Source of the DNA: a virus
Lineage: Duplodnaviria; Caudoviricetes
Length of the DNA stretch: 64,000 nucleotides
Direction: 5' to 3' (one strand)
Virus record (IMG/VR): IMGVR_UViG_3300014205_000170
Location: 320,001-384,000 of that record
This document shows positions 3,974-26,906 of the stretch, in pieces. Both the position numbers and the translations under genes were made by a program. Position 1 is the stretch's first letter. Each line of letters begins with the position of its first letter. Under the pieces are notes generated by a model. The model was not told where the DNA came from. It was given only the letters and a program-made list of their open reading frames with translations, and did no database searches.

Positions 3974-6295
3974 TTAGAAATCTTCGAAATTTGCTCCTTG
4001 TGGTAAAACTTGGAACGTTAAATCGATAAATTCTAAAGTTGGAGTAGGTTTCAATTGAATTTTTCCAGTTAAAGTATTTGGGTCAGCAGCAGGGCTACTA
4101 TCTAAAACCACTTTAAACGCATCTAAACCTCTTTGATTTTGAATTTGTAATAAGATAGGTTCAACTTTTTGTAAGAATTGGTCTCTAACAGTTGCATCAT
4201 TTTGTTCAAACAATAACGTTTGAGATGCAGCAGCGATTAACCTTCTAACTTGAAGTAAAAGCCTTCTAACATTTACTCTATCAAGAGCAGATTGTTTAAT
4301 TTGTAAAGTTTTTTGACCATAAATAACAACACCTTGTTGAACAAAAGTTGCTACCGGATTAATTCTATCTTGATATAATGTATCTCTATCATCTTGAGTT
4401 AATTTCACATCAGCTTTTTGAACCATAGAAGATACTAGACCTCTATTAAATCCAGCCGGTGCAAACCAAGGATAAGCAACATTATCAGTTAAAGCAATCG
4501 CTCTTACAATTTCCATTGTTGGAGACACATATACAAACTTATTAAAGTTTGAATCGTTGATTTGAACCCATGGCCAATATGTAGCAGCATAGTTAGAATC
4601 AATTCCAGTATCTTGAAGGTCAGATACAGCCTCAGAAGCAGTTCCTTTTACAAGACCTTCTGTGATTCTTGGAGAGTCAACAATATAAATTGAATCAGCT
4701 CTGTTTTCAACAGTAGTAAGTGCATATTTTACAACAGCTTCATGATTTTTATAATCAATTCCAGGAACAGCAAATAAATTTATATCTACTTTTTCAGGAT
4801 TTGACATTTCATCAATTGCATCTTCCATTGCAATTACGTTATTCGCATCAATTGCAGCAGAAGTAAAATCAGGGTATCTAAATTTATTCCAACCATCAAA
4901 ACCACCTGCTGGAACCAAAGTAAATTTACGTTCTGATTTTGTATAAGCGCTTACAGCGATTTCATTACCAAGAACATAACTTGCAGAAGGCGCAGTGCTT
5001 TCCATGTGGAATCCTTTAACAGTAGTTGTACCAGTTGGAGTAGCTCCAAGATATTGCCACAAATCAGTTTCTAAAGTTTTAATTGAATTGCTTACAGAAA
5101 CTTGACTTGAAGTAAAGCCGGTATAACCCAATTCAGAAACACCAAGATAAGTTTTAAATACAGAATCTCCAGAGAAATACACAGTTTTGTAATAAACTTG
5201 TGGACTTGTAGAACCGCTTATTGCAGAACTTCTAAAAGTATATCCTTTAAATCCGGCAGGAACTGTATCAGTTGGATGATTTTCTGCTAAATCCAAAGTC
5301 ACATAATTTGACCTTCTTGGATATTCTTCATCTGTTGTACCAATTGCTTTTGCAATATAATTTGGTTGTGTAGAATCTAATGTAAGACTTCTAAATCTTT
5401 CTAATGTAACAATTGCAGCATCAGTATCATTGTAATCTCTAATGATAACATCAAATGTTTTTGTAATATCATCAATGTTCGCAATAGAAATTTTAATTTC
5501 TGAGTTTGCACTATCTCCATCAGAGATAGAAGTAAATTTAAATAATTCTCTAACAATACCACCTGCAACTTTAGATACAATATAAGGTGTTACTGGAGTT
5601 TGATACCCATCTAAATAATCAGTATAAATAGCATCAGTAGAATAAGTAATTGCAGTATTGATAGTTAATATGTTACCTCTTTGAGCAGCTTCTCTTGTGA
5701 AGTGTGGATAAATAGTTTCAACATATAAACCAAGGTCATTTGTAAATTTCTTAGGATTTTTTCCTAAAACTTTTACGATATAATCATCTCTTGTTTCATC
5801 TAAAGAAACAGTGATAGCACTTAAAGTTTGAGCAGTTAAAGGTCCAGTAGTAGCACTTAAAGTGAAAGGAAGTAATATTCCTGTGATGTTTGCAATTTTT
5901 ACAGCACTCTCAGCAGTTGCTAAGAAAGAAACTCCTTCGTTAGCAGATTTACTTCTAATAACACATAAAGGTGAACCACTAAATGTTCCACCACTAGCTT
6001 GAATAATCCAAGCAGCAGAGTTAGTAAAACCTTCATTACCAAGAACTCTTGTAATAGTAAGTTCTTGTGATTGTTTTAAAAATGAATTTGCAACATACGG
6101 CAATTGAATTCTAGTGTCGGTTGTACCGAATCTAGCCAAATATTCGTCTGTACTTGAAATTTTGATAGGTTCAAAAGCTGGTCCTTTTGTTGTTTCACCA
6201 ACAAGACCCAATCTTGTGATACCTATTTGAGATGCAAAAACTGAGAAATCTTGTTCTCTTGTGTAAACACCGGGTGATACGAAAACTGTTGCCAT
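3974..6295 (-). CDS. Contractile tail sheath protein (T4 gp18-like)
   Basis: N-terminal FVSPGVYTRE; C-terminal PWFAPAGFNRG, RINPV, GQKTL, DRVNVRRLL, FEQND. Confidence 0.95.
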   Translation of the reverse strand: MATVFVSPGVYTREQDFSVFASQIGITRLGLVGETTKGPAFEPIKISSTDEYLARFGTTDTRIQLPYVANSFLKQSQELTITRVLGNEGFTNSAAWIIQASGGTFSGSPLCVIRSKSANEGVSFLATAESAVKIANITGILLPFTLSATTGPLTAQTLSAITVSLDETRDDYIVKVLGKNPKKFTNDLGLYVETIYPHFTREAAQRGNILTINTAITYSTDAIYTDYLDGYQTPVTPYIVSKVAGGIVRELFKFTSISDGDSANSEIKISIANIDDITKTFDVIIRDYNDTDAAIVTLERFRSLTLDSTQPNYIAKAIGTTDEEYPRRSNYVTLDLAENHPTDTVPAGFKGYTFRSSAISGSTSPQVYYKTVYFSGDSVFKTYLGVSELGYTGFTSSQVSVSNSIKTLETDLWQYLGATPTGTTTVKGFHMESTAPSASYVLGNEIAVSAYTKSERKFTLVPAGGFDGWNKFRYPDFTSAAIDANNVIAMEDAIDEMSNPEKVDINLFAVPGIDYKNHEAVVKYALTTVENRADSIYIVDSPRITEGLVKGTASEAVSDLQDTGIDSNYAATYWPWVQINDSNFNKFVYVSPTMEIVRAIALTDNVAYPWFAPAGFNRGLVSSMVQKADVKLTQDDRDTLYQDRINPVATFVQQGVVIYGQKTLQIKQSALDRVNVRRLLLQVRRLIAAASQTLLFEQNDATVRDQFLQKVEPILLQIQNQRGLDAFKVVLDSSPAADPNTLTGKIQLKPTPTLEFIDLTFQVLPQGANFEDF

Positions 6296-7136: not shown

Positions 7137-7430
7137 CATAGAACAGAAGTAATTGGACGGGATATATAAAAGACACGCCAATTTTTGGCCTTTGCAGCGA
7201 TTACTTCTTAATGTGTTACTGGGGGTTTCTACTCAACACAGCGCCGGCACTAAGCGGAGAGGCGTACATAGAACGGAGGGCTATACCTTTGAAAGTTGAC
7301 CGCAACCTAAAGCACTATAGTGTTTGACTTTAGGCATACGATAGATACTTGGCTCCGAGAAAAAGGAATAGTAATCAATCAATGGTGGGTGATAATAAAG
7401 GTTTTACAAAATCTTTATTAGGACTCACTA
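7137..7430 (+). ncRNA. Candidate structured non-coding RNA (unidentified)
   Basis: ORF-free, locally GC-richer gap with several complementary stems; G-U pairs favour the + strand. Confidence 0.45.
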
Positions 7431-7521
7431 TGCAAACTCCTGAAAACTTTCTCCTTAGAAATTCCAATAGATAAATTTAGAAATAAAGTATTATTACGAA
7501 TAAAGATTTTAGATAAGAATA

Positions 7522-8061
7522 TTATCTAGCATTAAATACATCATCCTTAACTCTAATTCCAACAATTTTTATAGAGAAAGCTATATCTCCTGCATAAGAT
7601 TGTTGATTTGCAATATTAGAAGAACCATCATCAATAACTTCATAATAATGACCTTTAAAATAAGTATAATCACCTATTCTGATATTTACGTTTAATTCAG
7701 CTAAATGTGTTCTGTATACACTTGCTGTAATTTTTCCATATCCTTTTTTGATAATTCCACCAGGAACCATGTATTCCGGAGAATCAGATTCTACATTTAT
7801 TCTTCCAAATACTTCTACTGGAGTTAAGTAAACTTTTTTCTTTGATTCACCGTAAAGTTTATGAGTATTAGTTTTTTGATAATCAACTCTATATAAAATG
7901 AAACTTTCCTTTAAAATATCATTGGTTATTTCTCTTCCTACAGTATCAAAAAAAGCTCTTTCTTTTTCTCCAAAGAACAAATCAATACCTTTTTTAGAGA
8001 TATCTTGAGATTTTGCTTCTTCAGGCTTTTCTTCGCCTTCATTATAAGGAGGATTTGCCAT
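7522..8061 (-). CDS. Neck / head-closure protein (gp14-like)
   Basis: LYRVDYQKT....LYGES and IGDY.YFKGHYYEV motifs; follows gp13-like gene. Confidence 0.6.
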   Translation of the reverse strand: MANPPYNEGEEKPEEAKSQDISKKGIDLFFGEKERAFFDTVGREITNDILKESFILYRVDYQKTNTHKLYGESKKKVYLTPVEVFGRINVESDSPEYMVPGGIIKKGYGKITASVYRTHLAELNVNIRIGDYTYFKGHYYEVIDDGSSNIANQQSYAGDIAFSIKIVGIRVKDDVFNAR

Positions 8062-13693: not shown

Positions 13694-14710
13694 ATGAATC
13701 TACCAGTTGTTCAATCAAATGATTCTTCAAATAAGAAGAAATTTAAACCGGAACATATCACTCAAGTTTTAGTAGGTGGTGCTCTTATTTATGCATTATA
13801 TTCCGCTGTACCTTTTTTACTTGGAGCTATCCATGGTGCAGTATTGTTAGGAATATTAGGTGCAATACTTTGTATTACGTTTGGAGTGGGTAAAATCGGC
13901 GGAGGCATTCGAAGACTTATTACAACAGCGTTTGTTATTGGTATTAGAGCTTTAACATCGGCTTTTGTAAAAGTTAATCCTTGGGCCATAGTTAAAAATC
14001 ATATTAAAAATATGAAACAATCTCGCGAAGAGATGGATGCTCAAATTACAAACTTAAATGAAGCTGTTGGAAACAATGAATTGCTCATTGAAAAAAATAC
14101 TGCTGAAATGAAGGATGAAAAAGACTGGGGCAGAAAAGAAATTGAGAAAGGAAATAAAGAGAAAGCGGCAGTACATGCAAATCAAGTTGGTCGTCTTGAT
14201 AAATTCAATTCAAAATTAATTACCTTAACTGGTAAAATGCGTTACTTACTTGGATTTTTGGAAAATTTACATGAAAAAGTAGGATACTCAATTACTGATT
14301 TGGAAAATGACCTTAAAGTTCAAGAAATGGAGTATAAGTCTTTATTAGCCGGTACTAATGCTTTTCAAAAGGCCATGAACATTTATAAAGGAAATGTAGA
14401 TGAACTTGAATTGAAAAATATGGCGATTGAAGAAATTGAAACTAAAATAGGTAACTTCCGTGGTCAAATAGATAAAGCATTGCGTGATTCTTCTAAATTT
14501 ATGGCAAGTATGGAAACTATGGATGAAGTAAATATTGAAAGAGGTTTAAAATTATTAGAAAATTTTGACGACAATCAATATGATGACATTTTAAAACAAT
14601 TAGATGCTAATCCGGTTAACTCAGCAGTTAAAATACAGGCCAATCAAGGACAAAACAAATATGGTTCTTTTTTAAATAATAATGTTAAAGACGTAGAAAT
14701 TCAAAAATAA
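13694..14710 (+). CDS. Membrane-anchored PspA-like coiled-coil protein
   Basis: Two N-terminal TM segments, then NP.AI....I..M and a long heptad region. Confidence 0.55.
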   Translation: MNLPVVQSNDSSNKKKFKPEHITQVLVGGALIYALYSAVPFLLGAIHGAVLLGILGAILCITFGVGKIGGGIRRLITTAFVIGIRALTSAFVKVNPWAIVKNHIKNMKQSREEMDAQITNLNEAVGNNELLIEKNTAEMKDEKDWGRKEIEKGNKEKAAVHANQVGRLDKFNSKLITLTGKMRYLLGFLENLHEKVGYSITDLENDLKVQEMEYKSLLAGTNAFQKAMNIYKGNVDELELKNMAIEEIETKIGNFRGQIDKALRDSSKFMASMETMDEVNIERGLKLLENFDDNQYDDILKQLDANPVNSAVKIQANQGQNKYGSFLNNNVKDVEIQK

Positions 14711-17134: not shown

Positions 17135-17937
17135 TGGAAACAGTTAAATTTATAAATACAGAATTACCTGACCTTATTGAGTTAAAAGGCATTAAACAAA
17201 CTTACGATAACAACAAGAAAATAGTTCTTGATAATTTAGATTTACTTATAGAAGACAAACCAAATGCAGCACAATCAGTAGCTATATTAGGAGAGTCCGG
17301 ATGTGGTAAATCAACACTTTTAAGATATATTTGTGGTTTACAAATACCAACAGAAGGAGATGTTTTAATTCGTGGTAAAAAAATCGAACGCAAAGATAGA
17401 ACCGGAATGGTATTCCAACAATACTCGTCTTTGCCTTGGTTAACGGTTTTAGATAATGTTGCACTCGGATTAAAAATTCAAGGAATTGCAAGAAGCGAAA
17501 GAGAAGACCGAGCCATGGAAATGATACGTACTGTAGGTTTAGAAGGTCATGAAAATAAGTATGCAATGTATCCTTCTTTATCTGGAGGTCAATTACAAAG
17601 AGTAGCCATTGGAAGAAGTTTATTGACCAATCCTGACATGATTGTAATGGATGAGCCATTTGGAGCTTTAGACATTAACACTAGGTCTAAAATGCAGGAT
17701 ATGATGCTAAAAATATTGGAAAAATATCAACCAACAGTTGTGTTTGTAACACATGATATTGCGGAAGCTGTATATGTAGCTGATGATGTTTTTATTATGA
17801 AAGCAAATCCTGGACAAATTGTAAAACATATAAAAGTAAGCGAAATGATTTTGGGTCCAAAAACTCGTTTAACAAAAAGAAGCAAAGAATTCATTGATAC
17901 TGTTTGTATGATTGAAGATTTTATGACAAGTATGTAA
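17134..17937 (+). CDS. ABC transporter ATP-binding subunit (SsuB/TauB-like)
   Basis: GESGCGKST, LSGGQLQR, MDEPFGALD, VTHD. Confidence 0.95.
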   Translation: METVKFINTELPDLIELKGIKQTYDNNKKIVLDNLDLLIEDKPNAAQSVAILGESGCGKSTLLRYICGLQIPTEGDVLIRGKKIERKDRTGMVFQQYSSLPWLTVLDNVALGLKIQGIARSEREDRAMEMIRTVGLEGHENKYAMYPSLSGGQLQRVAIGRSLLTNPDMIVMDEPFGALDINTRSKMQDMMLKILEKYQPTVVFVTHDIAEAVYVADDVFIMKANPGQIVKHIKVSEMILGPKTRLTKRSKEFIDTVCMIEDFMTSM

Positions 17938-17938
17938 T

Positions 17939-18706
17939 ATGCAAAAAATCTTTTTTATCATATTGTTTTTTATATCCTTATCAGGATATTCAAACAAAGA
18001 TTCAATTAATGTTGATACAACTAAATGTAAAATCGAAAGTTTTTATGAAGTAAATTTATCAAGTAGAAATATTTGGAGAGGAATCGATTTTGGAAATTAC
18101 AGTCCTTGTGTGTTTGGATTAGTTGGAATTACATATAAAAAACTTGAAATAGGTGCTTATGGAATTACATCTCTAACTGGAACTAACATTGGATATGGCA
18201 ATACTTTTAATGTTTATTCAGCATTAAAATTTAAATACATTTCTTTCTATATTGAAGATTATTATTTTAACGGTGATATTTCTAATATTCAAACAGATTA
18301 TCTAGATTGGAATAATACACATTTTCTTGAAAATAGAATAAAAATTGAGCATAAAGGATTTCATCTTATAGGTGGTTATACACTTGCCGGTGGTAAATTT
18401 TACAACATAACTTCACCTTTTAATAATACACAAGCAGTATATTTAGAAGTTGGATACAAACTTAAACATTGGTCTTTATCTATTGGTGGAATTACTGGAC
18501 CTAGCGCTTTAAATTTTCACGACAAAGAGGGGATAACAAACATTCTTTTAAAACATAAAAGTGAGATACAAAAATTAGGAAACCTACCAGTTGAAATTGG
18601 AATGTGTTATAATCCTAATTACAATAATATTGCACCAAAAGGTATTCCTCGTTATGGATACGGAAATAATGCATTTAATTTTTTAATAACAATCATATTA
18701 ATTTAA
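17939..18706 (+). CDS. Putative outer-membrane beta-barrel protein
   Basis: Signal peptide; SRNIWRGID motif; alternating aromatic/Gly beta strands. Confidence 0.55.
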   Translation: MQKIFFIILFFISLSGYSNKDSINVDTTKCKIESFYEVNLSSRNIWRGIDFGNYSPCVFGLVGITYKKLEIGAYGITSLTGTNIGYGNTFNVYSALKFKYISFYIEDYYFNGDISNIQTDYLDWNNTHFLENRIKIEHKGFHLIGGYTLAGGKFYNITSPFNNTQAVYLEVGYKLKHWSLSIGGITGPSALNFHDKEGITNILLKHKSEIQKLGNLPVEIGMCYNPNYNNIAPKGIPRYGYGNNAFNFLITIILI

Positions 18707-22128: not shown

Positions 22129-22215
22129 ATGATTACTAAAAATACATATCACTATTTGACACTTAATGTGGTCGTGGCGCACTTTTTACAAGTCGTCCAG
22201 CCGGACTATATTTAA
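22129..22215 (+). CDS. Val-rich attenuator leader peptide MITKNTYHYLTLNVVVAHFLQVVQPDYI
   Basis: 28 codons with GTG GTC GTG and GTC GTC; directly upstream of terminator and ValRS. Confidence 0.8.
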   Translation: MITKNTYHYLTLNVVVAHFLQVVQPDYI

Positions 22216-22269
22216 ACTTTAGTGTATTATAATACATTCAGACTCCGGCTAAACAAGTCGGAGTTTTTT
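22199..22269 (+). promoter_or_regulatory. Attenuator (antiterminator/terminator) of valS
   Basis: Terminator GACTCCGGCT(22241-50)/AGTCGGAGTT(22256-65) plus T-run; AGCCGGA(22199-205) pairs perfectly with TCCGGCT(22244-50). Confidence 0.8.
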
Positions 22270-22289
22270 ATTTTTAAAAAATTAATTTT

Positions 22290-23642
22290 ATGAAAACAGA
22301 TAATAAATACAAAATAGATATGCCACCACCAACGATAAGTGGTAAATTACATATGGGTCACGCTTTTTCTTATACACAAATGGATTTTATAGCGCGATAT
22401 CAACGAATGAAAAATAAAGAGTTGATTTACCCATTTGGTTATGATAACAATGGAATACCAACAGAAAAGTTTGCTTACAAAAAAAGAATAACAGATACAC
22501 AAAAGATAATCGAACTTTCAAATGAAACTTCTAAAATGTATATGGAATTTTTCAATAATATAAATATGGGGTTTTCTAATCATAGTTATAACACATTTGA
22601 TAAGCTTTCCACTGAAATTGCCTTACTGTCTTTTTATGACCTCAAAGAGAAAGGGTTGCTTTATAAAGGAAAAGAAAATTATTCTTTTTGTACTTCTTGT
22701 AATAAATCGATTCCTAATTCTGAAATTGAAAATAATAAACACATTAGAGATAATGGTGATATTATTGAAAAAGAAGGGGAAGGTTATTTTATTAAAACCA
22801 AAGACTTTAAACAAGAACTTATAGAACAAATTGAAAAAATAGAATGGAAACCTGAAAAATTCAAGAATAGAATTTTAAGTTGGATTAATGATATGGATAG
22901 AGATTGGTCAATTGCTAGACGCAGAGATTATGGAATTTCAATTCCAGGAGAATCTGAACTAAAGTTTGATACATGGTTTACCTCTTCTTTAACTCCTCAA
23001 ATAGCATGGGCATCTCATACCGGTATTGCTTCTTTAGAATGTCCTATTTTTGATTTAAGATTTCAAGCACATGATATTATTAGTACTTGGGCGCTATATA
23101 CCATCATTAAATCTTATCACCACAATAAACAAATACCATGGAAACAGATTATTATCACTGGACATGCGCTTGATAAAAATGGTGATAAACTTGCAAAGAG
23201 TAAAGGAAATTGTACCACCACTGATTATTACATAAAAGAATTTGGTGGAGAAGGAATAAGATATTGGGCAGCTCAAACTCAAATTGGAACCGATACATTA
23301 TTAGATGATGAAACAATGAAAAATTGTAAAAAGCTTATGATTAAACTTAAAAATGCATATAAATTCATAGAGTTTCAAAAATCCAAAGAATGGCTTGGTT
23401 TCAATAAAGAGAAAGAAATTGAGTGGGGAACAATTAAAATAAAAATAGAAGAATATTTTGAACAAGGAGATTGGGCAAAAGCATTTGAAGAATTGTTTAA
23501 TTTCTTCTGGAAAAGATTTTGCGATATTTTTATTGAAGATTCAAAAAAAGAGAGTTGTTCACAAAGCTTAGAGCTAATTTTAAATGAAATGATGATTTAT
23601 TGGCAAATTTTCTTCCCAAAAATTCAAGAAAACATAAAATAA
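22290..23642 (+). CDS. valS: Compact valyl-tRNA synthetase lacking the CP1 editing domain and C-terminal coiled coil
   Basis: DMPPPTISGKLHMGH (HIGH), DWSIARRR.YG, FDTWFTSS, QAHDII..W, KLAKSKGN (KMSKS); Val leader upstream; only 450 aa. Confidence 0.8.
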   Translation: MKTDNKYKIDMPPPTISGKLHMGHAFSYTQMDFIARYQRMKNKELIYPFGYDNNGIPTEKFAYKKRITDTQKIIELSNETSKMYMEFFNNINMGFSNHSYNTFDKLSTEIALLSFYDLKEKGLLYKGKENYSFCTSCNKSIPNSEIENNKHIRDNGDIIEKEGEGYFIKTKDFKQELIEQIEKIEWKPEKFKNRILSWINDMDRDWSIARRRDYGISIPGESELKFDTWFTSSLTPQIAWASHTGIASLECPIFDLRFQAHDIISTWALYTIIKSYHHNKQIPWKQIIITGHALDKNGDKLAKSKGNCTTTDYYIKEFGGEGIRYWAAQTQIGTDTLLDDETMKNCKKLMIKLKNAYKFIEFQKSKEWLGFNKEKEIEWGTIKIKIEEYFEQGDWAKAFEELFNFFWKRFCDIFIEDSKKESCSQSLELILNEMMIYWQIFFPKIQENIK

Positions 23643-23697
23643 AACTGAAATTATTCTATTGATTTATAGAGAATTAAGAAAAAAAACATAAAAAAAC

Positions 23698-23757
23698 TTT
23701 GTTTTATTGAAACTTTACCTTAAATTTGACGTTAGAATATAAAATTGTACTATTTAT
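23698..23757 (+). promoter_or_regulatory. Stacked putative promoters of the tRNA-array leader
   Basis: TTTG(23698)-N19-TAAATTTG(23721); GAAAC(23709)-N16-CGTT(23730); CTATTTAT(23750). Confidence 0.55.
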
Positions 23758-23826
23758 TATAAGTTGAACCCCATATAAATGGGAGATACAGTGCGGGGTC
23801 TCTCACAGCTTATTTAGAATTAGAAA

Positions 23827-23928
23827 ATGAAAAATGTAAATACATACACGGTTAATACACTAAGACAATTAGTGTTAGAACAACTTATAGAAAGTTGTCC
23901 AGCTGGGATATGTTCGTTTACAAGTTAA
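23827..23928 (+). CDS. Mixed-codon attenuator leader peptide MKNVNTYTVNTLRQLVLEQLIESCPAGICSFTS
   Basis: 33 codons; ACG, CTA, AGA, TTA, GAA, CTT and ATA match downstream tRNA anticodons. Confidence 0.7.
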   Translation: MKNVNTYTVNTLRQLVLEQLIESCPAGICSFTS

Positions 23929-23984
23929 TTATATATAACTAAACGTTCTTCAAGAACCCCGGCTTTAAAAGGTCGGGGTTTTTT
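23901..23984 (+). promoter_or_regulatory. Attenuator of the 11-tRNA array
   Basis: Terminator AACCCCGGCT(23955-64)/GGTCGGGGTT(23971-80) plus T-run; AGCTGGG(23901-07) pairs with CCCGGCT(23958-64). Confidence 0.75.
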
Positions 23985-23998
23985 GTTTTATTGATATT

Positions 23999-24070
23999 GC
24001 CTTATTAGCTCAGTTGTAAGAGCGCTCGTTTCGTAAACGAGAGGTCATCAGGTCGAACTGATATGAGGCT
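23999..24070 (+). tRNA. tRNA-Thr(CGT), atypical T-loop
   Basis: Acceptor GCCTTAT/ATGAGGC; anticodon arm CTCGT-TTCGTAA-ACGAG; T-loop GTCGAA. Confidence 0.75.
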
Positions 24071-24081
24071 CAAAAAAATAT

Positions 24082-24168
24082 GCCTTCGTGGTGAAATTGG
24101 ACAGAGACACAAGGGTCTTAAAAACCCTCGGATTTAATTCCATGCGGATTCGAGTTCCGCCGAAGGTA
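24082..24168 (+). tRNA. tRNA-Leu(TAA)
   Basis: AGGGT-CTTAAAA-ACCCT; long variable arm. Confidence 0.9.
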
Positions 24169-24181
24169 CAAAAAAAGAGAA

Positions 24182-24349
24182 ATGGGAAAAGTAGAAAAGA
24201 AAAAATTAAGATTACAAGAAAGGATTCAAACTTTAGAAAATGAATTAAGAACTTCTTTGACAAAAAAAACATCTGATGTAAAAGAAATCAATGTTGCTGT
24301 TCATCAAAGAAAAATTTATGATTTAAAATTAGAATTACAAAAAATGTAA
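24182..24349 (+). CDS. Small coiled-coil hypothetical protein (55 aa; not in ORF track)
   Basis: MGKVEKKKLRLQERIQTLENELRTSL...QKM fills the gap between tRNAs. Confidence 0.55.
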   Translation: MGKVEKKKLRLQERIQTLENELRTSLTKKTSDVKEINVAVHQRKIYDLKLELQKM

Positions 24350-24355
24350 CAACAC

Positions 24356-24429
24356 GCCTTCGTAGCACAACGGATTAGTGTCTCTGTTTTCTAAACAGGT
24401 GGGTGGAGGTTCGAATCCTCTCGAAGGTA
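24356..24429 (+). tRNA. tRNA-Arg(TCT)
   Basis: TCTGT-TTTCTAA-ACAGG; GGTTCGAATCC T-arm. Confidence 0.85.
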
Positions 24430-24449
24430 CAAATGGTTCTTTGACATAT

Positions 24450-24534
24450 GCCAGAATGGTGAAATCGTGTAGACACACCATCCTCAAAAGATGGCGCTAT
24501 AAAAAGCGTGAGAGTTCGAATCTCTCTTCTGGTA
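24450..24534 (+). tRNA. tRNA-Leu(CAA)
   Basis: CCATC-CTCAAAA-GATGG; long variable arm. Confidence 0.9.
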
Positions 24535-24539
24535 CAATA

Positions 24540-24614
24540 GCTCCCTTAGCTCAGCTGGTTAGCAGCATCAGACTCATAATCTGAGGGTCGTTGGTTCGAG
24601 CCCAACAGGGAGCA
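24540..24614 (+). tRNA. tRNA-Ile2/Met(CAT)
   Basis: TCAGA-CTCATAA-TCTGA; paired G1-C72, so not an initiator; Ile2 versus Met unresolved. Confidence 0.85.
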
Positions 24615-24619
24615 CAAAT

Positions 24620-24704
24620 GTTACGGTATGCAAACTGGCTGAAGCACCTAGATTTTCAATCTAGTTTCGAAAGAAAATTGCAGGTTCGAACCCCGTCCGT
24701 AATA
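24620..24704 (+). tRNA. tRNA with Glu(TTC) anticodon and long variable arm
   Basis: CTAGA-TTTTCAA-TCTAG; 15-nt variable region with TTTC-GAAA-GAAA hairpin. Confidence 0.75.
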
Positions 24705-24709
24705 CAAAT

Positions 24710-24784
24710 GGCCACATAGCTCAATCGCGTTGGAGCAGGATGCTTATATCATCAAGGTTGGGAGTTCAAATCTCTCTGTGGCTA
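24710..24784 (+). tRNA. tRNA-Ile(TAT)
   Basis: GATG-CTTATAT-CATC; acceptor GGCCACA/TGTGGCT. Confidence 0.85.
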
Positions 24785-24797
24785 CAAAAAAATAAAT

Positions 24798-24879
24798 GCT
24801 CCGTTGGCGGAATGCAGACGCACTTGGCTTAGGACCAAGCTCTCGAAAGGGAATGAAGATTCGAATTCTTCACGGAGTA
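24798..24879 (+). tRNA. tRNA-Leu(TAG)
   Basis: CTTGG-CTTAGGA-CCAAG; long variable arm. Confidence 0.85.
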
Positions 24880-24959
24880 CAAAATTGTTCTTTGAATATT
24901 TGAAATACATGTTATTTTAGAAATATAGTGTGTATAACATTTTTTGTCTATTTATAATC

Positions 24960-25421
24960 ATGAGAAATGATATAATAAAACAAAAAAAAATAATTTTGAA
25001 ATTAATAAATGAAAATAGACCAAAATCATTTATTTGTAAGTTTTTAGATTGTAGACCTCTTACGTTAGATAATTATTTAAAAAAGTGGAACATAAATTAT
25101 GTTGGGAATAAAGGAGGAAAGGGATATAAAATTTCACCGATAAAAAAAACAGCTATTCAATATATGAATAGCACTGGACATATAAGTTCTTATAAATTAG
25201 GGAAAAAACTTATAGAAGATGGATTAAAAGAAAAAAAATGCGAATGTTGTAATTTAACAAAATGGATAAATAAAGACATACCTTTAGAATTACATCACAA
25301 AGATGGAAATAGGTTTAATAATGAATTACAAAATTTACAATTATTATGTCCTAATTGTCATGCTTTAACTGAAAATTATGGTAGCAAAAATAAAAAAAAT
25401 AAAAATGGCCCATTCGTCTAG
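24960..25421 (+). CDS. HNH endonuclease
   Basis: CECC...LELHHKDGNRFNN.LQNLQLLCPNCH; ATG 24960 preferred over GTG 24930. Confidence 0.85.
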   Translation: MRNDIIKQKKIILKLINENRPKSFICKFLDCRPLTLDNYLKKWNINYVGNKGGKGYKISPIKKTAIQYMNSTGHISSYKLGKKLIEDGLKEKKCECCNLTKWINKDIPLELHHKDGNRFNNELQNLQLLCPNCHALTENYGSKNKKNKNGPFV

Positions 25422-25479
25422 GGGTTTAGGACGCTGCCCTTTCACGGCAGAAACACGGATTCGAATTCCGTATGGGCTA
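25407..25479 (+). tRNA. tRNA-Glu(TTC)
   Basis: CTGCC-CTTTCAC-GGCAG. Confidence 0.9.
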
Positions 25480-25488
25480 CAATAAAAT

Positions 25489-25561
25489 GCTCTTATCGAC
25501 AAGTGGTTTAAGTCACCGCTTTCTCAAAGCGGAGTCACGGGTTCAAGTCCCGTTAAGAGTA
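25489..25561 (+). tRNA. tRNA-Glu(CTC)
   Basis: CCGCT-TTCTCAA-AGCGG. Confidence 0.9.
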
Positions 25562-25566
25562 CAAAT

Positions 25567-25645
25567 GCCGATGTGATGTAATGGTAGCCATACTGGTTTA
25601 AGAAGCCAGTGCGAAAGCGTTTCGGTTCGAGTCCGAACATCGGTA
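25567..25645 (+). tRNA. tRNA-Leu(AAG)
   Basis: CTGGT-TTAAGAA-GCCAG; variable arm GC-GAAA-GC. Confidence 0.85.
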
Positions 25646-25661
25646 CAAAAAAAGGAAAAAA

Positions 25662-25991
25662 ATGGAAACAACAGAAGTAAAAATTAATGCAATCGAAGTA
25701 AAAAAAGAACTGTATAAAAGTAAGGTAAATGCAAAATTAAGTCATTTTGACAAACCAAACTTGTATTACACAGTAGAATTGTCTACGGGAACATATCAGT
25801 TTCCTATTGCAACTACTGTAAAAAAAACATTAACTCTAATGGATGGAGATGAAGTTATTTCAATGTTTGACATTGATAAAGCTGCTCCGGACTTAGCAGG
25901 CGCTAACTTTGGTTTAGAGGTAAAAGCCTCTGATTTGAACCGTTGGATTGAGAGAGCAATAAAGAACGACGATTTTATAAAAATCAGTTAG
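25662..25991 (+). CDS. Hypothetical protein
   Basis: 109-aa ORF. Confidence 0.65.
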   Translation: METTEVKINAIEVKKELYKSKVNAKLSHFDKPNLYYTVELSTGTYQFPIATTVKKTLTLMDGDEVISMFDIDKAAPDLAGANFGLEVKASDLNRWIERAIKNDDFIKIS

Positions 25992-26028
25992 TAGATTTTT
26001 TTGTGTTTATATTTATATATAAACGCAA

Positions 26029-26442
26029 ATGAAAAAATTTCTGTTAATATTTTTTATAGTTTTAAGTTTAGCGTGCAAATCTCAAACTAAAAATTTGTGG
26101 CAAAAAATTCCAGATGACGCAAAACATGTTTATTCTGGTGTGATAATTACAATGGTAACTGGTGATTTAGTTTATAAATATTCAAAAGGAAGAACAGGAT
26201 TAGCGGTAGGAGTTGGTTTTTTATCAGGAGTAACCGCAGGAGTGGCAAAAGAATTGATATGGGACAAGTGGATGGGAAAAGGCGTTCCGAGTAAGTGGGA
26301 TGCATTTAGTACTGCGTGGGGAGCAGGAATAGGCACTATATCACTTAGGGTAATGATAGATGTTAGAGAACGAAAGCAGTATGATGAATACTCAATAGAA
26401 AAATTAGGTAAAAAGAAAAAAAGAAGACATAGAAATGGTTAA
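26029..26442 (+). CDS. YfiM-like putative lipoprotein/membrane protein
   Basis: Signal peptide with LAC; D..KH, G..KE..D and D....WG pattern. Confidence 0.55.
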   Translation: MKKFLLIFFIVLSLACKSQTKNLWQKIPDDAKHVYSGVIITMVTGDLVYKYSKGRTGLAVGVGFLSGVTAGVAKELIWDKWMGKGVPSKWDAFSTAWGAGIGTISLRVMIDVRERKQYDEYSIEKLGKKKKRRHRNG

Positions 26443-26515
26443 CATAACAATTAATATTCAACAACAACAGCAACAACAAACTCTAAATAAGGGTTCCGGA
26501 ATTGCTTTGTCTTGA
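26435..26515 (+). CDS. Gln7 attenuator leader peptide MVNITINIQQQQQQQTLNKGSGIALS
   Basis: CAA CAA CAA CAG CAA CAA CAA at 26459-26479; ATG overlaps the end of the upstream gene. Confidence 0.85.
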   Translation: MVNITINIQQQQQQQTLNKGSGIALS

Positions 26516-26571
26516 CGTTATTAATTTAACAAATTACAAAAAGCCTGGAACTTAAAGTTTCAGGCTTTTTT
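26492..26571 (+). promoter_or_regulatory. Attenuator of the tRNA-Gln/glnS operon
   Basis: Terminator AAGCCTGGAACT(26541-52)/AGTTTCAGGCTT(26556-67) plus T-run; GGTTCCGG(26492-99) pairs with CTGGAACT(26545-52). Confidence 0.8.
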
Positions 26572-26577
26572 ATTTAT

Positions 26578-26648
26578 TGTCCTATAGTGTAATGGCAGCA
26601 CAAGAGATTTTGACTCTCTTAGTCTAGGTTCGAGTCCTAGTGGGACAA
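26578..26648 (+). tRNA. tRNA-Gln(TTG) 1
   Basis: AGAGA-TTTTGAC-TCTCT; T1-A72. Confidence 0.9.
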
Positions 26649-26653
26649 CATAT

Positions 26654-26725
26654 TCCTCGTTGGTCTAATGGCAATGACGTTGGTTTTTGACACCAAAAGT
26701 GGTAGTTCGATTCTATCACGAGGAA
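26654..26725 (+). tRNA. tRNA-Gln(TTG) 2
   Basis: TTGGT-TTTTGAC-ACCAA. Confidence 0.9.
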
Positions 26726-26730
26726 CAAAT

Positions 26731-26803
26731 TGCTCCATAGTATAATGGCCTATTATCGCTGCCTTTGAAGCAGAAGACCTTGGTTCGATTCCAAGTGGAG
26801 CAT
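26731..26803 (+). tRNA. tRNA-Gln(TTG) 3
   Basis: CTGC-CTTTGAA-GCAG. Confidence 0.85.
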
Positions 26804-26810
26804 CTAAAAT

Positions 26811-26883
26811 TGCCTTATAGTATAATGGTTATTATTCTCGTTTCTGAGACGATGAGATGTTGGTTCGAATCCAGCTTAGGTAA
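26811..26883 (+). tRNA. tRNA-Gln(CTG)
   Basis: TCGT-TTCTGAG-ACGA; one T-T mismatch in acceptor stem. Confidence 0.8.
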
Positions 26884-26906
26884 CAAACAAAAAAAATCGT
26901 AACTTT

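Follow-up and report, generated by a model that had tools for sequence, protein, structure and literature searches.

A predicted ribosome-stalling, multi-input transcription attenuator in front of a tRNA array of a huge phage

Introduction

In the ilvGMEDA, ilvBN and thr attenuators of Enterobacteria, codons for several amino acids are placed in a short leader that is translated, and read-through follows a shortage of any of the cognate charged transfer RNAs (tRNAs). Attenuation also governs phenylalanyl-tRNA synthetase in Escherichia coli pheST, where the pheM leader senses the enzyme's own charged tRNA. The tRNA genes of phages are, to our knowledge, mostly viewed as constitutive cargo whose role is to compensate for codon bias or for cleavage of host tRNAs. 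Here we describe a 33-codon leader open reading frame (ORF) followed by an intrinsic terminator and an array of 11 tRNA genes in a 64,000-nucleotide (nt) stretch of viral DNA, hereafter the window (positions 320001-384000 of the 518,809-bp virus record IMGVR_UViG_3300014205_000170, which has terminal repeats and 30% G+C and for which a landfill metagenome, perhaps its source, is the sole listed holder). The region is best read, with a probability of about 0.78, as a ribosome-stalling, multi-input transcription attenuator that gates the phage tRNA array.

The element resembles the ilvGMEDA, ilvBN and thr attenuators in its multi-amino-acid leader ORF, its intrinsic terminator, its predicted mutually exclusive 1:2, 2:3 and 3:4 pairings and its predicted OR logic. 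The bacterial leaders control biosynthesis enzymes and contain runs of codons, whereas the phage element is viral, precedes tRNA genes, and lists up to ~11 amino acids, many by single codons. With pheST it shares the placing of translation machinery under a leader peptide, and a Val-rich leader followed by a gene resembling valyl-tRNA synthetase (ValRS) in the same window (22129-23642) is a direct analogue; pheST, in contrast, is bacterial, responds to one amino acid and yields an enzyme, whereas the target module yields tRNAs. T-box elements (RF00230) likewise choose between terminator and antiterminator according to the state of a specific tRNA and control tRNA-charging genes, but they bind a single uncharged tRNA through a specifier codon and involve no translation, whereas the phage element contains an ORF. 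The array itself is of the kind seen in the tRNA clusters of T4, T5, mycobacteriophages, Lak and other huge phages, with homing endonucleases, small ORFs and adjoining phage aminoacyl-tRNA synthetase (aaRS) genes (PMC7162821), and the deposited 634,780-bp phage genome LR745206.1 contains the same leader modules. The terms "attenuat" and "leader" occur 0 times in Al-Shayeb et al. 2020 (PMC7162821). A full-text literature search returned no description of attenuators before phage tRNA arrays, a result limited by the library searched and not a proof of absence. What appears new, by analogy with the bacterial systems, is the application of leader-peptide attenuation, a known mechanism, to viral tRNA genes with many inputs per leader.

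Results and discussion

Leader and array composition covary

Five other leader and terminator modules in this genome share the layout of the target. The ValRS-like protein has hundreds of metagenomic relatives; on the contigs of eight of these and in four tRNA regions of LR745206.1, 20 further modules of the same architecture were found. The LR745206.1 arrays were located by an RF00005 search, the 40-kb stretch around its ValRS gene being devoid of tRNAs. A scan of a viral contig collection with the single ValRS-like protein gave no relative. A profile scan of the collection gave 17 loci (21-50% identity), almost none of which has a tRNA array within 10 kb of the gene, and these loci therefore added nothing to the module set. 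A Glu array preceded by the ORF MTMFLEHLERMERQVH (L026) was excluded for want of a clear terminator. The final set comprises 25 leaders and 18 distinct arrays.

Amino acids with a tRNA in the following array are present in the leader core in 64 of 70 cases, versus 51 of 270 for those without. The array that follows a leader is the best of the 18 for 20-21 of the 25 leaders, and the summed leader/array score is 82-100 versus ~21 when arrays are permuted among leaders, a value that none of 20,000 permutations reached. The outcome is the same for the 17 multi-amino-acid modules alone, and when the leader ORF is picked by a fixed rule rather than by eye. The leader-by-array matrix shows that the other leaders of this genome each match their own array only (P from 5e-3 to 2e-7), the target giving the weakest diagonal value. 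The Gln leader (seven Gln codons, six CAA and one CAG) matches at 7 of 15 codons (P = 2e-7). A check for leader/array covariation across related phages had been proposed with the original prediction, and it came out positive at the amino acid level.

The same trend is visible among six homologous Leu-type leaders, which share an MKN..N..I header and a tail and in most cases a promoter-like motif upstream. Glu occurs only in the two leaders that are followed by Glu tRNAs (the target and L011), Phe only in the three followed by Phe tRNAs, and Thr and Ile together with their tRNAs only in the target. A single Ile codon (ATA) is also found in the L011 core, accompanied by a CAT tRNA whose identity is not settled. 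Within the core proper, Cys is confined to the leader that Cys tRNAs follow (L009a); the single Cys codon of the target core, TGT, belongs to the 3' arm of hairpin H2. The leaders may also refer to their neighbors. The two CAA codons of the target had been read as pointing to the adjacent Gln module, which fits the relatives, where upstream leaders hold Gln codons if a Gln array follows. Similarly, a leader of this genome termed FSNH holds AAA ahead of a Lys array.

The leader RNA is predicted to form mutually exclusive pairings

The target RNA has the predicted 1:2, 2:3 and 3:4 regions of a classical attenuator (Table 1). The full leader folds at -43.4 kcal/mol (z -4.78; equaled by 0 of 200 shuffles). 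This minimum free energy (MFE) structure contains the formed terminator and a duplex of the header (codons 3-9) with the tail (codons 25-32), inside which lie two perfect 7-bp hairpins, H1 and H2, and the regulatory codons. The 1:2 duplex between header and tail has an energy of -12.7 kcal/mol versus -7.9 for shuffled sequences, 3% of which reach it. The competing 2:3 antiterminator duplex has an energy of -14.9 versus -6.2 kcal/mol for shuffles (z -4.1; reached by 0.3%), and region 2 lies in codons 25-31, where a translating ribosome could mask it. The terminator stem begins 23 bases past the leader stop, and the first tRNA (23999) lies 16 nt past the stem, a gap that leaves no room for a separate promoter.

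These pairings are conserved. The 1:2 pairing is seen in all six Leu-type homologs, whose alignment shows a conserved ACATA core in region 1, and the complementarity behind the antiterminator averages z -2.2 over the 25 modules. The MAFFT alignment of the six leaders placed region 2 out of register in L003, L007 and L012, and for this reason duplexes were evaluated sequence by sequence against shuffles in place of pair counts. In L003, L007, L012 and L011, changes in region 2 are mirrored in the terminator arm; the paired segments are AGCTGGG/CCCGGCT in the target, TGGTCGGGT/ACCCGACCA in L003 and GTTCGGAC/GCCCGAAC in L007 and L012. The L011 counterpart of H2 reads CAACTG/CAGTTG, a compensatory change that keeps the hairpin. 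When a stalled ribosome was modeled by masking a 30-nt footprint, stalls at codons up to 20-21 of the target left the antiterminator intact, whereas later positions weakened or disrupted it, and the Gln, Lys and other leaders gave the same profile. The 2:3 pairing is present in the masked folds of all five other modules of the genome; relative to shuffled sequence it reaches significance in the Gln and FSNH leaders and falls short of it in the Lys and the largest mixed ones.

A motif of the form GAAACnT-N3-8-TAnnTTTG-(n)CGT precedes the leaders in L011, L003, L007 and L012 as well as the largest mixed leader of this genome (genome position 427111). It lies 60-100 nt 5' of the leader ATGs and has only 4 matches in the 519-kb genome. 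The copy ahead of the target may serve as a promoter. The TAnnTTTG box, which we take to be the Bacteroidota -7 promoter element, is a hint at the host phylum. Between this motif and the ATG, the target has a 5'-untranslated region (UTR) hairpin that its homologs in other phages lack.

A terminator preceded by a short ORF might also arise by coincidence at an ordinary gene end, if an inter-unit terminator happened to follow one of the small ORFs frequent in AT-rich DNA and common codons (TTA, GAA, AGA, ATA) met common tRNAs. The genome has ~470 terminator-like hairpins, over half of them with a short ORF upstream, and the codon match of the target reaches only P = 0.06 in a window defined a priori (see below). 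Coincidence does not account for the 16-nt spacing to the first tRNA, the antiterminator complementarity of z -4.1, the promoter-like motif conserved at homologous leaders, the failure of all 20,000 permutations, or the gain and loss of leader amino acids along with those of array tRNAs. Of the explanations considered, it is the least likely, and extremely so.

Alternatively, the ORF may be untranslated, with the alternative-fold terminator answering to a protein, a directly bound tRNA or temperature, or acting as a processing signal, and with the amino acid pattern as a by-product. The strong structure (z -4.78) would fit such an RNA element, as would the header and tail, which are conserved as RNA and not as peptide, the word GTNGTCCAGCNGG recurring in another frame in the Val module. 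There is also no Shine-Dalgarno sequence 5' of the target ATG, but the genes of this genome generally lack one. A purely structural element would not explain why, in 25 modules whose cores are unrelated, one frame spells the amino acids that the downstream tRNAs carry, or why an open frame always ends 17-36 nt before the terminator stem. In addition, an Rfam search with cmscan over 23400-26000 (E <= 1, and with gathering thresholds) detected no curated leader family such as Leu_leader, His_leader, Thr_leader or Trp_leader, no T-box and no other cis-regulatory family. Apart from tRNAs, it gave three matches below threshold, all to other families and read as chance; a match to rnk_pseudo on the leader tail and terminator scored 28.5 bits against a gathering score of 55 bits. 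We consider an untranslated element very unlikely.

Table 1 Features of the target region and of related leader modules. Positions refer to the window; all listed strands are those of the window.

Feature	Position	Strand	Details
Promoter-like element	23709-23732	+	GAAACTTTACCT-TAAATTTG-ACGT, including TAnnTTTG box; motif shared with most homologous leaders
5'-UTR hairpin	23766-23800	+	GAACCCC...CGGGGTC; arms repeat terminator-arm words (sequence and fold)
Leader ORF	23827-23928	+	33 codons + stop; product MKNVNTYTVNTLRQLVLEQLIESCPAGICSFTS
Region 1 (header)	23835-23853	+	Codons 3-9; pairs with region 2 (MFE of full leader)
Regulatory codons	23848-23892	+	Codons 8-22: ACG GTT AAT ACA CTA AGA CAA TTA GTG TTA GAA CAA CTT ATA GAA
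Hairpin H1	23857-23875	+	ACACTAA/TTAGTGT, codons 11-17 (fold)
Hairpin H2	23880-23898	+	ACAACTT/AAGTTGT, codons 18-24 (fold)
Region 2 (tail)	23900-23922	+	Core CAGCTGGG, codons 25-27; pairs with region 1 or, as antiterminator, with terminator 5' arm
Intrinsic terminator (regions 3 + 4)	23952-23989	+	14-bp stem at 23952-23983, -19 kcal/mol, T-run
Proximal tRNAs	23999-24880	+	Thr-CGT, Leu-TAA, Arg-TCT, Leu-CAA, CAT, 86-nt TTC, Ile-TAT, Leu-TAG (tRNA calls)
tRNA Thr-CGT	23999-24070	+	Rfam only; anticodon read from sequence
55-codon ORF within array	24182-24349	+	ORF list
HNH-type endonuclease ORF inserted in array	24960-25421	+	Relatives annotated as homing endonucleases; weak HNH-type matches
Distal tRNAs	25407-25646	+	Glu-TTC, Glu-CTC, Leu-AAG (tRNA calls); Leu-AAG ends at 25646
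Val-rich leader + terminator	22129-22266	+	MITKNTYHYLTLNVVVAHFLQVVQPDYI; 5 Val in 28 residues; precedes ValRS-like gene
ValRS-like gene	22290-23642	+	Half-size, 450 residues; HIGH- and KMSKS-like motifs
Gln module	26435-26884	+	Leader MVNITINIQQQQQQQTLNKGSGIALS, terminator 26538-26570, then 3 tRNA-Gln-TTG + 1 tRNA-Gln-CTG (sequence)
FSNH leader	out of window		MRTNTSHNHFNKSTFSNKSRMGVLCALER (TNTSHNHFNKSTFSNKS); followed by Phe x2, Ser x2, Asn x2, His, Thr tRNAs; amino-acid-level P = 8e-7
Lys leader	out of window		MLVVVAIVIKKKKKPWSQGTIAY (five Lys); precedes five tRNA-Lys
Largest mixed leader	out of window		46 residues, rich in T, Y, W, P, V, M, G, A, I, D, R; followed by 19 tRNAs, which serve exactly this set of amino acids; P = 5e-4
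Leader in relative			MRNSNNILVLCLCVLLLADRLGY; followed by Cys x2, Val x3, Leu x5 tRNAs
Leader in relative			MRNINNNFDFNFEAEADSIGSRVMSCS (FDFNFEAEADS); followed by Asp, Glu, Phe, Ala, Ser tRNAs
Leader in relative			MNTLRSHSSHRSTSVEG...; followed by Arg x2, Ser x3, His x2 tRNAs
Leader in relative			MTNTMKFKFKFF...; followed by Lys and Phe tRNAs
Leader in relative			...ASYESYYEEG...; followed by Glu x4, Tyr x2 tRNAs
Leader in relative			...THKNFSKSHKWFS...; followed by His, Phe, Trp, Lys tRNAs

Codon content of the target leader

The codons that the original prediction had assigned to positions 8-22 agree letter for letter with the ORF. Its count of 8-9 of the 11 tRNAs with an exact codon in this stretch is likewise borne out by the sequence and the tRNA calls: eight are matched, and nine if the CAT tRNA is Ile2. 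Sequence identity of this tRNA is 72% with an Ile-GAT tRNA and 64% with the other CAT tRNAs, a similarity that does not settle between Met and Ile2. Leu-CAA and Glu-CTC were said to be unmatched, and indeed TTG and GAG are absent from the leader. Two of the matched codons are rare in the genome, ACG at 0.39% and CTA at 0.59% of codons.

The match probability was computed, as had been suggested, under the codon usage of the genome (483 ORFs of at least 120 codons, amounting to 76% of the genome), for which the exact-codon set of the target has a background frequency of 0.225. The regulatory window was taken as codons 2-21, a choice set by the RNA fold and independent of the codon match. Within it, 8 of 20 codons match exactly (P = 0.06) and 10 of 20 match at the amino acid level (P = 0.13). 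When the choice of codon window is allowed for by comparison with random 33-codon ORFs, the best 11-codon window (8 matches) has P = 0.006 and the best 15-codon window (9 matches) P = 0.0125. The presence of seven distinct exact codons in codons 8-22 has P ~ 0.001 for the fixed window and 0.065 for the whole ORF. By itself the codon match is real but modest, at ~1% significance, and the earlier caution that TTA, GAA, AGA and ATA are common codons was justified. It becomes convincing only jointly with the other modules and the relatives.

Amino acid versus isoacceptor level

Isoacceptor tests were performed with the amino acid held fixed and the codon usage of each phage as background. Codons that the array can decode, wobble included, number 43 of 70 versus 34.9 expected (P = 0.02). 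Almost all of this mild enrichment is supplied by Arg (10 of 12 versus 3.4 expected), whose codon box tracks the anticodon: AGA accompanies TCT in the target, and CGC/CGA accompany ACG in L003 and L007. For Thr, Ser, Val, Ala and Leu, decodability by the array does not exceed the expectation, and exact Watson-Crick codons are not enriched over the 25 leaders (58 versus 72.3 expected). Seven Leu-bearing leaders together use 26 distinct Leu codons versus 19.2 expected (P = 5e-4). The target alone uses 3 versus 2.4 expected (P = 0.45), and the three Leu codons facing three Leu isoacceptors, which had been singled out as meaningful, are thus not unusual in this leader; diversity is raised only over the seven leaders collectively.

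These results bear on a stricter interpretation, in which the leader would index the isoacceptors exactly, each codon having been selected as a Watson-Crick partner and the loss of each isoacceptor being reported separately. The exact codons for 8-9 of 11 tRNAs, the rare ACG and CTA included, the Arg codon boxes and the surplus of distinct Leu codons speak for it. Exact codons, however, are not enriched once the amino acid is given, decodability is unremarkable for five amino acids, and the Leu diversity of the target is ordinary. Furthermore, two of its three Thr codons in the regulatory window are ACA, for which the array has no tRNA, TTG and GAG are missing, and CTA, TTA, GTG and CTT lie within hairpin arms. 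Such an index is unlikely. Selection for full isoacceptor coverage is seen for Arg and, collectively, for Leu only. Stalling is by nature codon-specific. The proposed multi-input OR gate at the isoacceptor level therefore stands as an attenuator with several inputs, given the covariation at the amino acid level, and only in part as an exact isoacceptor index.

Proposed mechanism

In the preferred reading, a ribosome-stalling attenuator, transcription would start at the promoter-like element at ~23709-23732 and continue into the 33-codon leader. With ample charged tRNA, the ribosome would pass quickly, and region 2 would either pair with region 1 or be covered by the ribosome. Region 2 being blocked, the 3:4 terminator would form and transcription would stop 16 nt short of the first tRNA gene. 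A slow Thr, Leu, Arg, Gln, Glu or Ile codon among codons 8-22 would stall the ribosome inside the 1:2 loop, upon which region 2 would pair with the 5' arm of the terminator and the polymerase would read through into the tRNA genes. The expected outcome is a feedback in which phage tRNAs are made when decoding capacity is short. Since a stall at a single codon would suffice, the leader would function as an OR gate for the amino acids, and in some measure for the isoacceptors, supplied by the array, and in this manner may sense tRNA loss. The scheme presumes that the leader is translated, that the promoter-like element is active, that stalling favors read-through, and that the OFF state wins under smooth translation. 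The shortage would presumably originate in nature from the codon demand of the AT-rich phage, from host tRNA cleavage or from starvation.

Several observations weigh against this mechanism. Equilibrium folds cut before region 4 favor the antiterminator (2:3) even without a ribosome, which implies that kinetics or coverage by the ribosome must bring about the OFF state. Among the 25 leaders the target is the weakest, and its own array ranks 4th-7th of 18. Its control codons are mostly single copy, whereas classical leaders have runs, and its core contains Val, Asn, Ser and Cys codons for which the array has no tRNA. Part of the codon match may be structural, via H1 and H2: the matched codons CTA, TTA and CTT sit in hairpin arms, and the unmatched GTG, AGT and TGT make up the 3' arms of the two hairpins, indicating that RNA structure also constrains codon choice. 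Finally, a sigma-70-like consensus match lies upstream of the HNH insertion, and the last three tRNAs may as a result have some independent expression.

The design appears general within a clade of huge phages. One may go further and suppose, tentatively and as less likely than not, a clade-wide "tRNA on demand" circuit in which all tRNA arrays and some aaRS genes are gated by leaders that list the tRNAs behind them. Decoding capacity that the host lacks or that has been destroyed, for example by anticodon nucleases, would be detected at codon resolution, and only those tRNAs would be transcribed. If so, the leaders could reveal the specificity of unusual phage tRNAs and truncated aaRS genes. 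For the attenuator proposed here, the leader can be viewed as a table of contents of its array and as a model for feedback on decoding capacity during infection. Such leaders offer a route, from sequence alone, to transcription units in uncultured huge phages and to identity guesses for their odd tRNAs and mini-aaRS genes, and, as natural multi-input codon sensors, might be reused as reporters of tRNA availability.

Other modules and tRNA-like genes

The ValRS-like protein aligns to ~800-residue ValRS models in three separate stretches. Hundreds of relatives of the same size occur on huge-phage contigs, often followed by a second class I mini-aaRS (~420 residues). On the other side of the array, the Gln leader begins with an ATG that overlaps the stop codon of the preceding 137-codon gene, ATGGTTAA (26435-26442), suggesting that this leader may be translated in coupling with that gene instead of depending on a promoter of its own. 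The three tRNA arrays outside the window are each preceded by a short ORF and a terminator.

Among the relatives, L013 has two Lys/Phe-rich leaders in tandem, MLHLFKHKFFFKTSNSVEGRKIMS (7409-7541) and MTNTMKFKFKFFIYRRVNTS (7568-7685), each with its own terminator, ahead of one Lys/Phe array. Within the Asp/Glu/Phe/Ala/Ser array of L009, ARAGORN calls a tRNA with the anticodon TTA, which would read the stop codon UAA (14019-14088); it is possibly a suppressor tRNA or a sign of stop-codon recoding.

The 86-nt TTC tRNA of the target array (24620-24705) looks like a tRNA of type II that bears a Glu anticodon. A length of 85-88 nt is found for many tRNAs of this phage despite anticodons (Glu-TTC, Asn, His, Lys, Trp, Thr) of classes that normally have a short variable arm; others lie at genome positions 420793-420880, 421003-421089, 422329-422414, 428161-428246 and 429717-429802. 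Additional tRNA-like stretches between called tRNAs (genome positions 420083-420180, 420896-420963, 427690-427790 and 430875-430971) were missed by ARAGORN and, for the most part, by Rfam. The first of these has an anticodon loop reading TGA (Ser), which would fit the TCA and TCG codons of its leader. ARAGORN also reports a permuted gene resembling transfer-messenger RNA (genome positions 17780-18274; tag peptide GNVKVVSLQRMLAA). At 4818 and 17799 it makes unusual tRNA-like calls whose anticodons have 4 bases.

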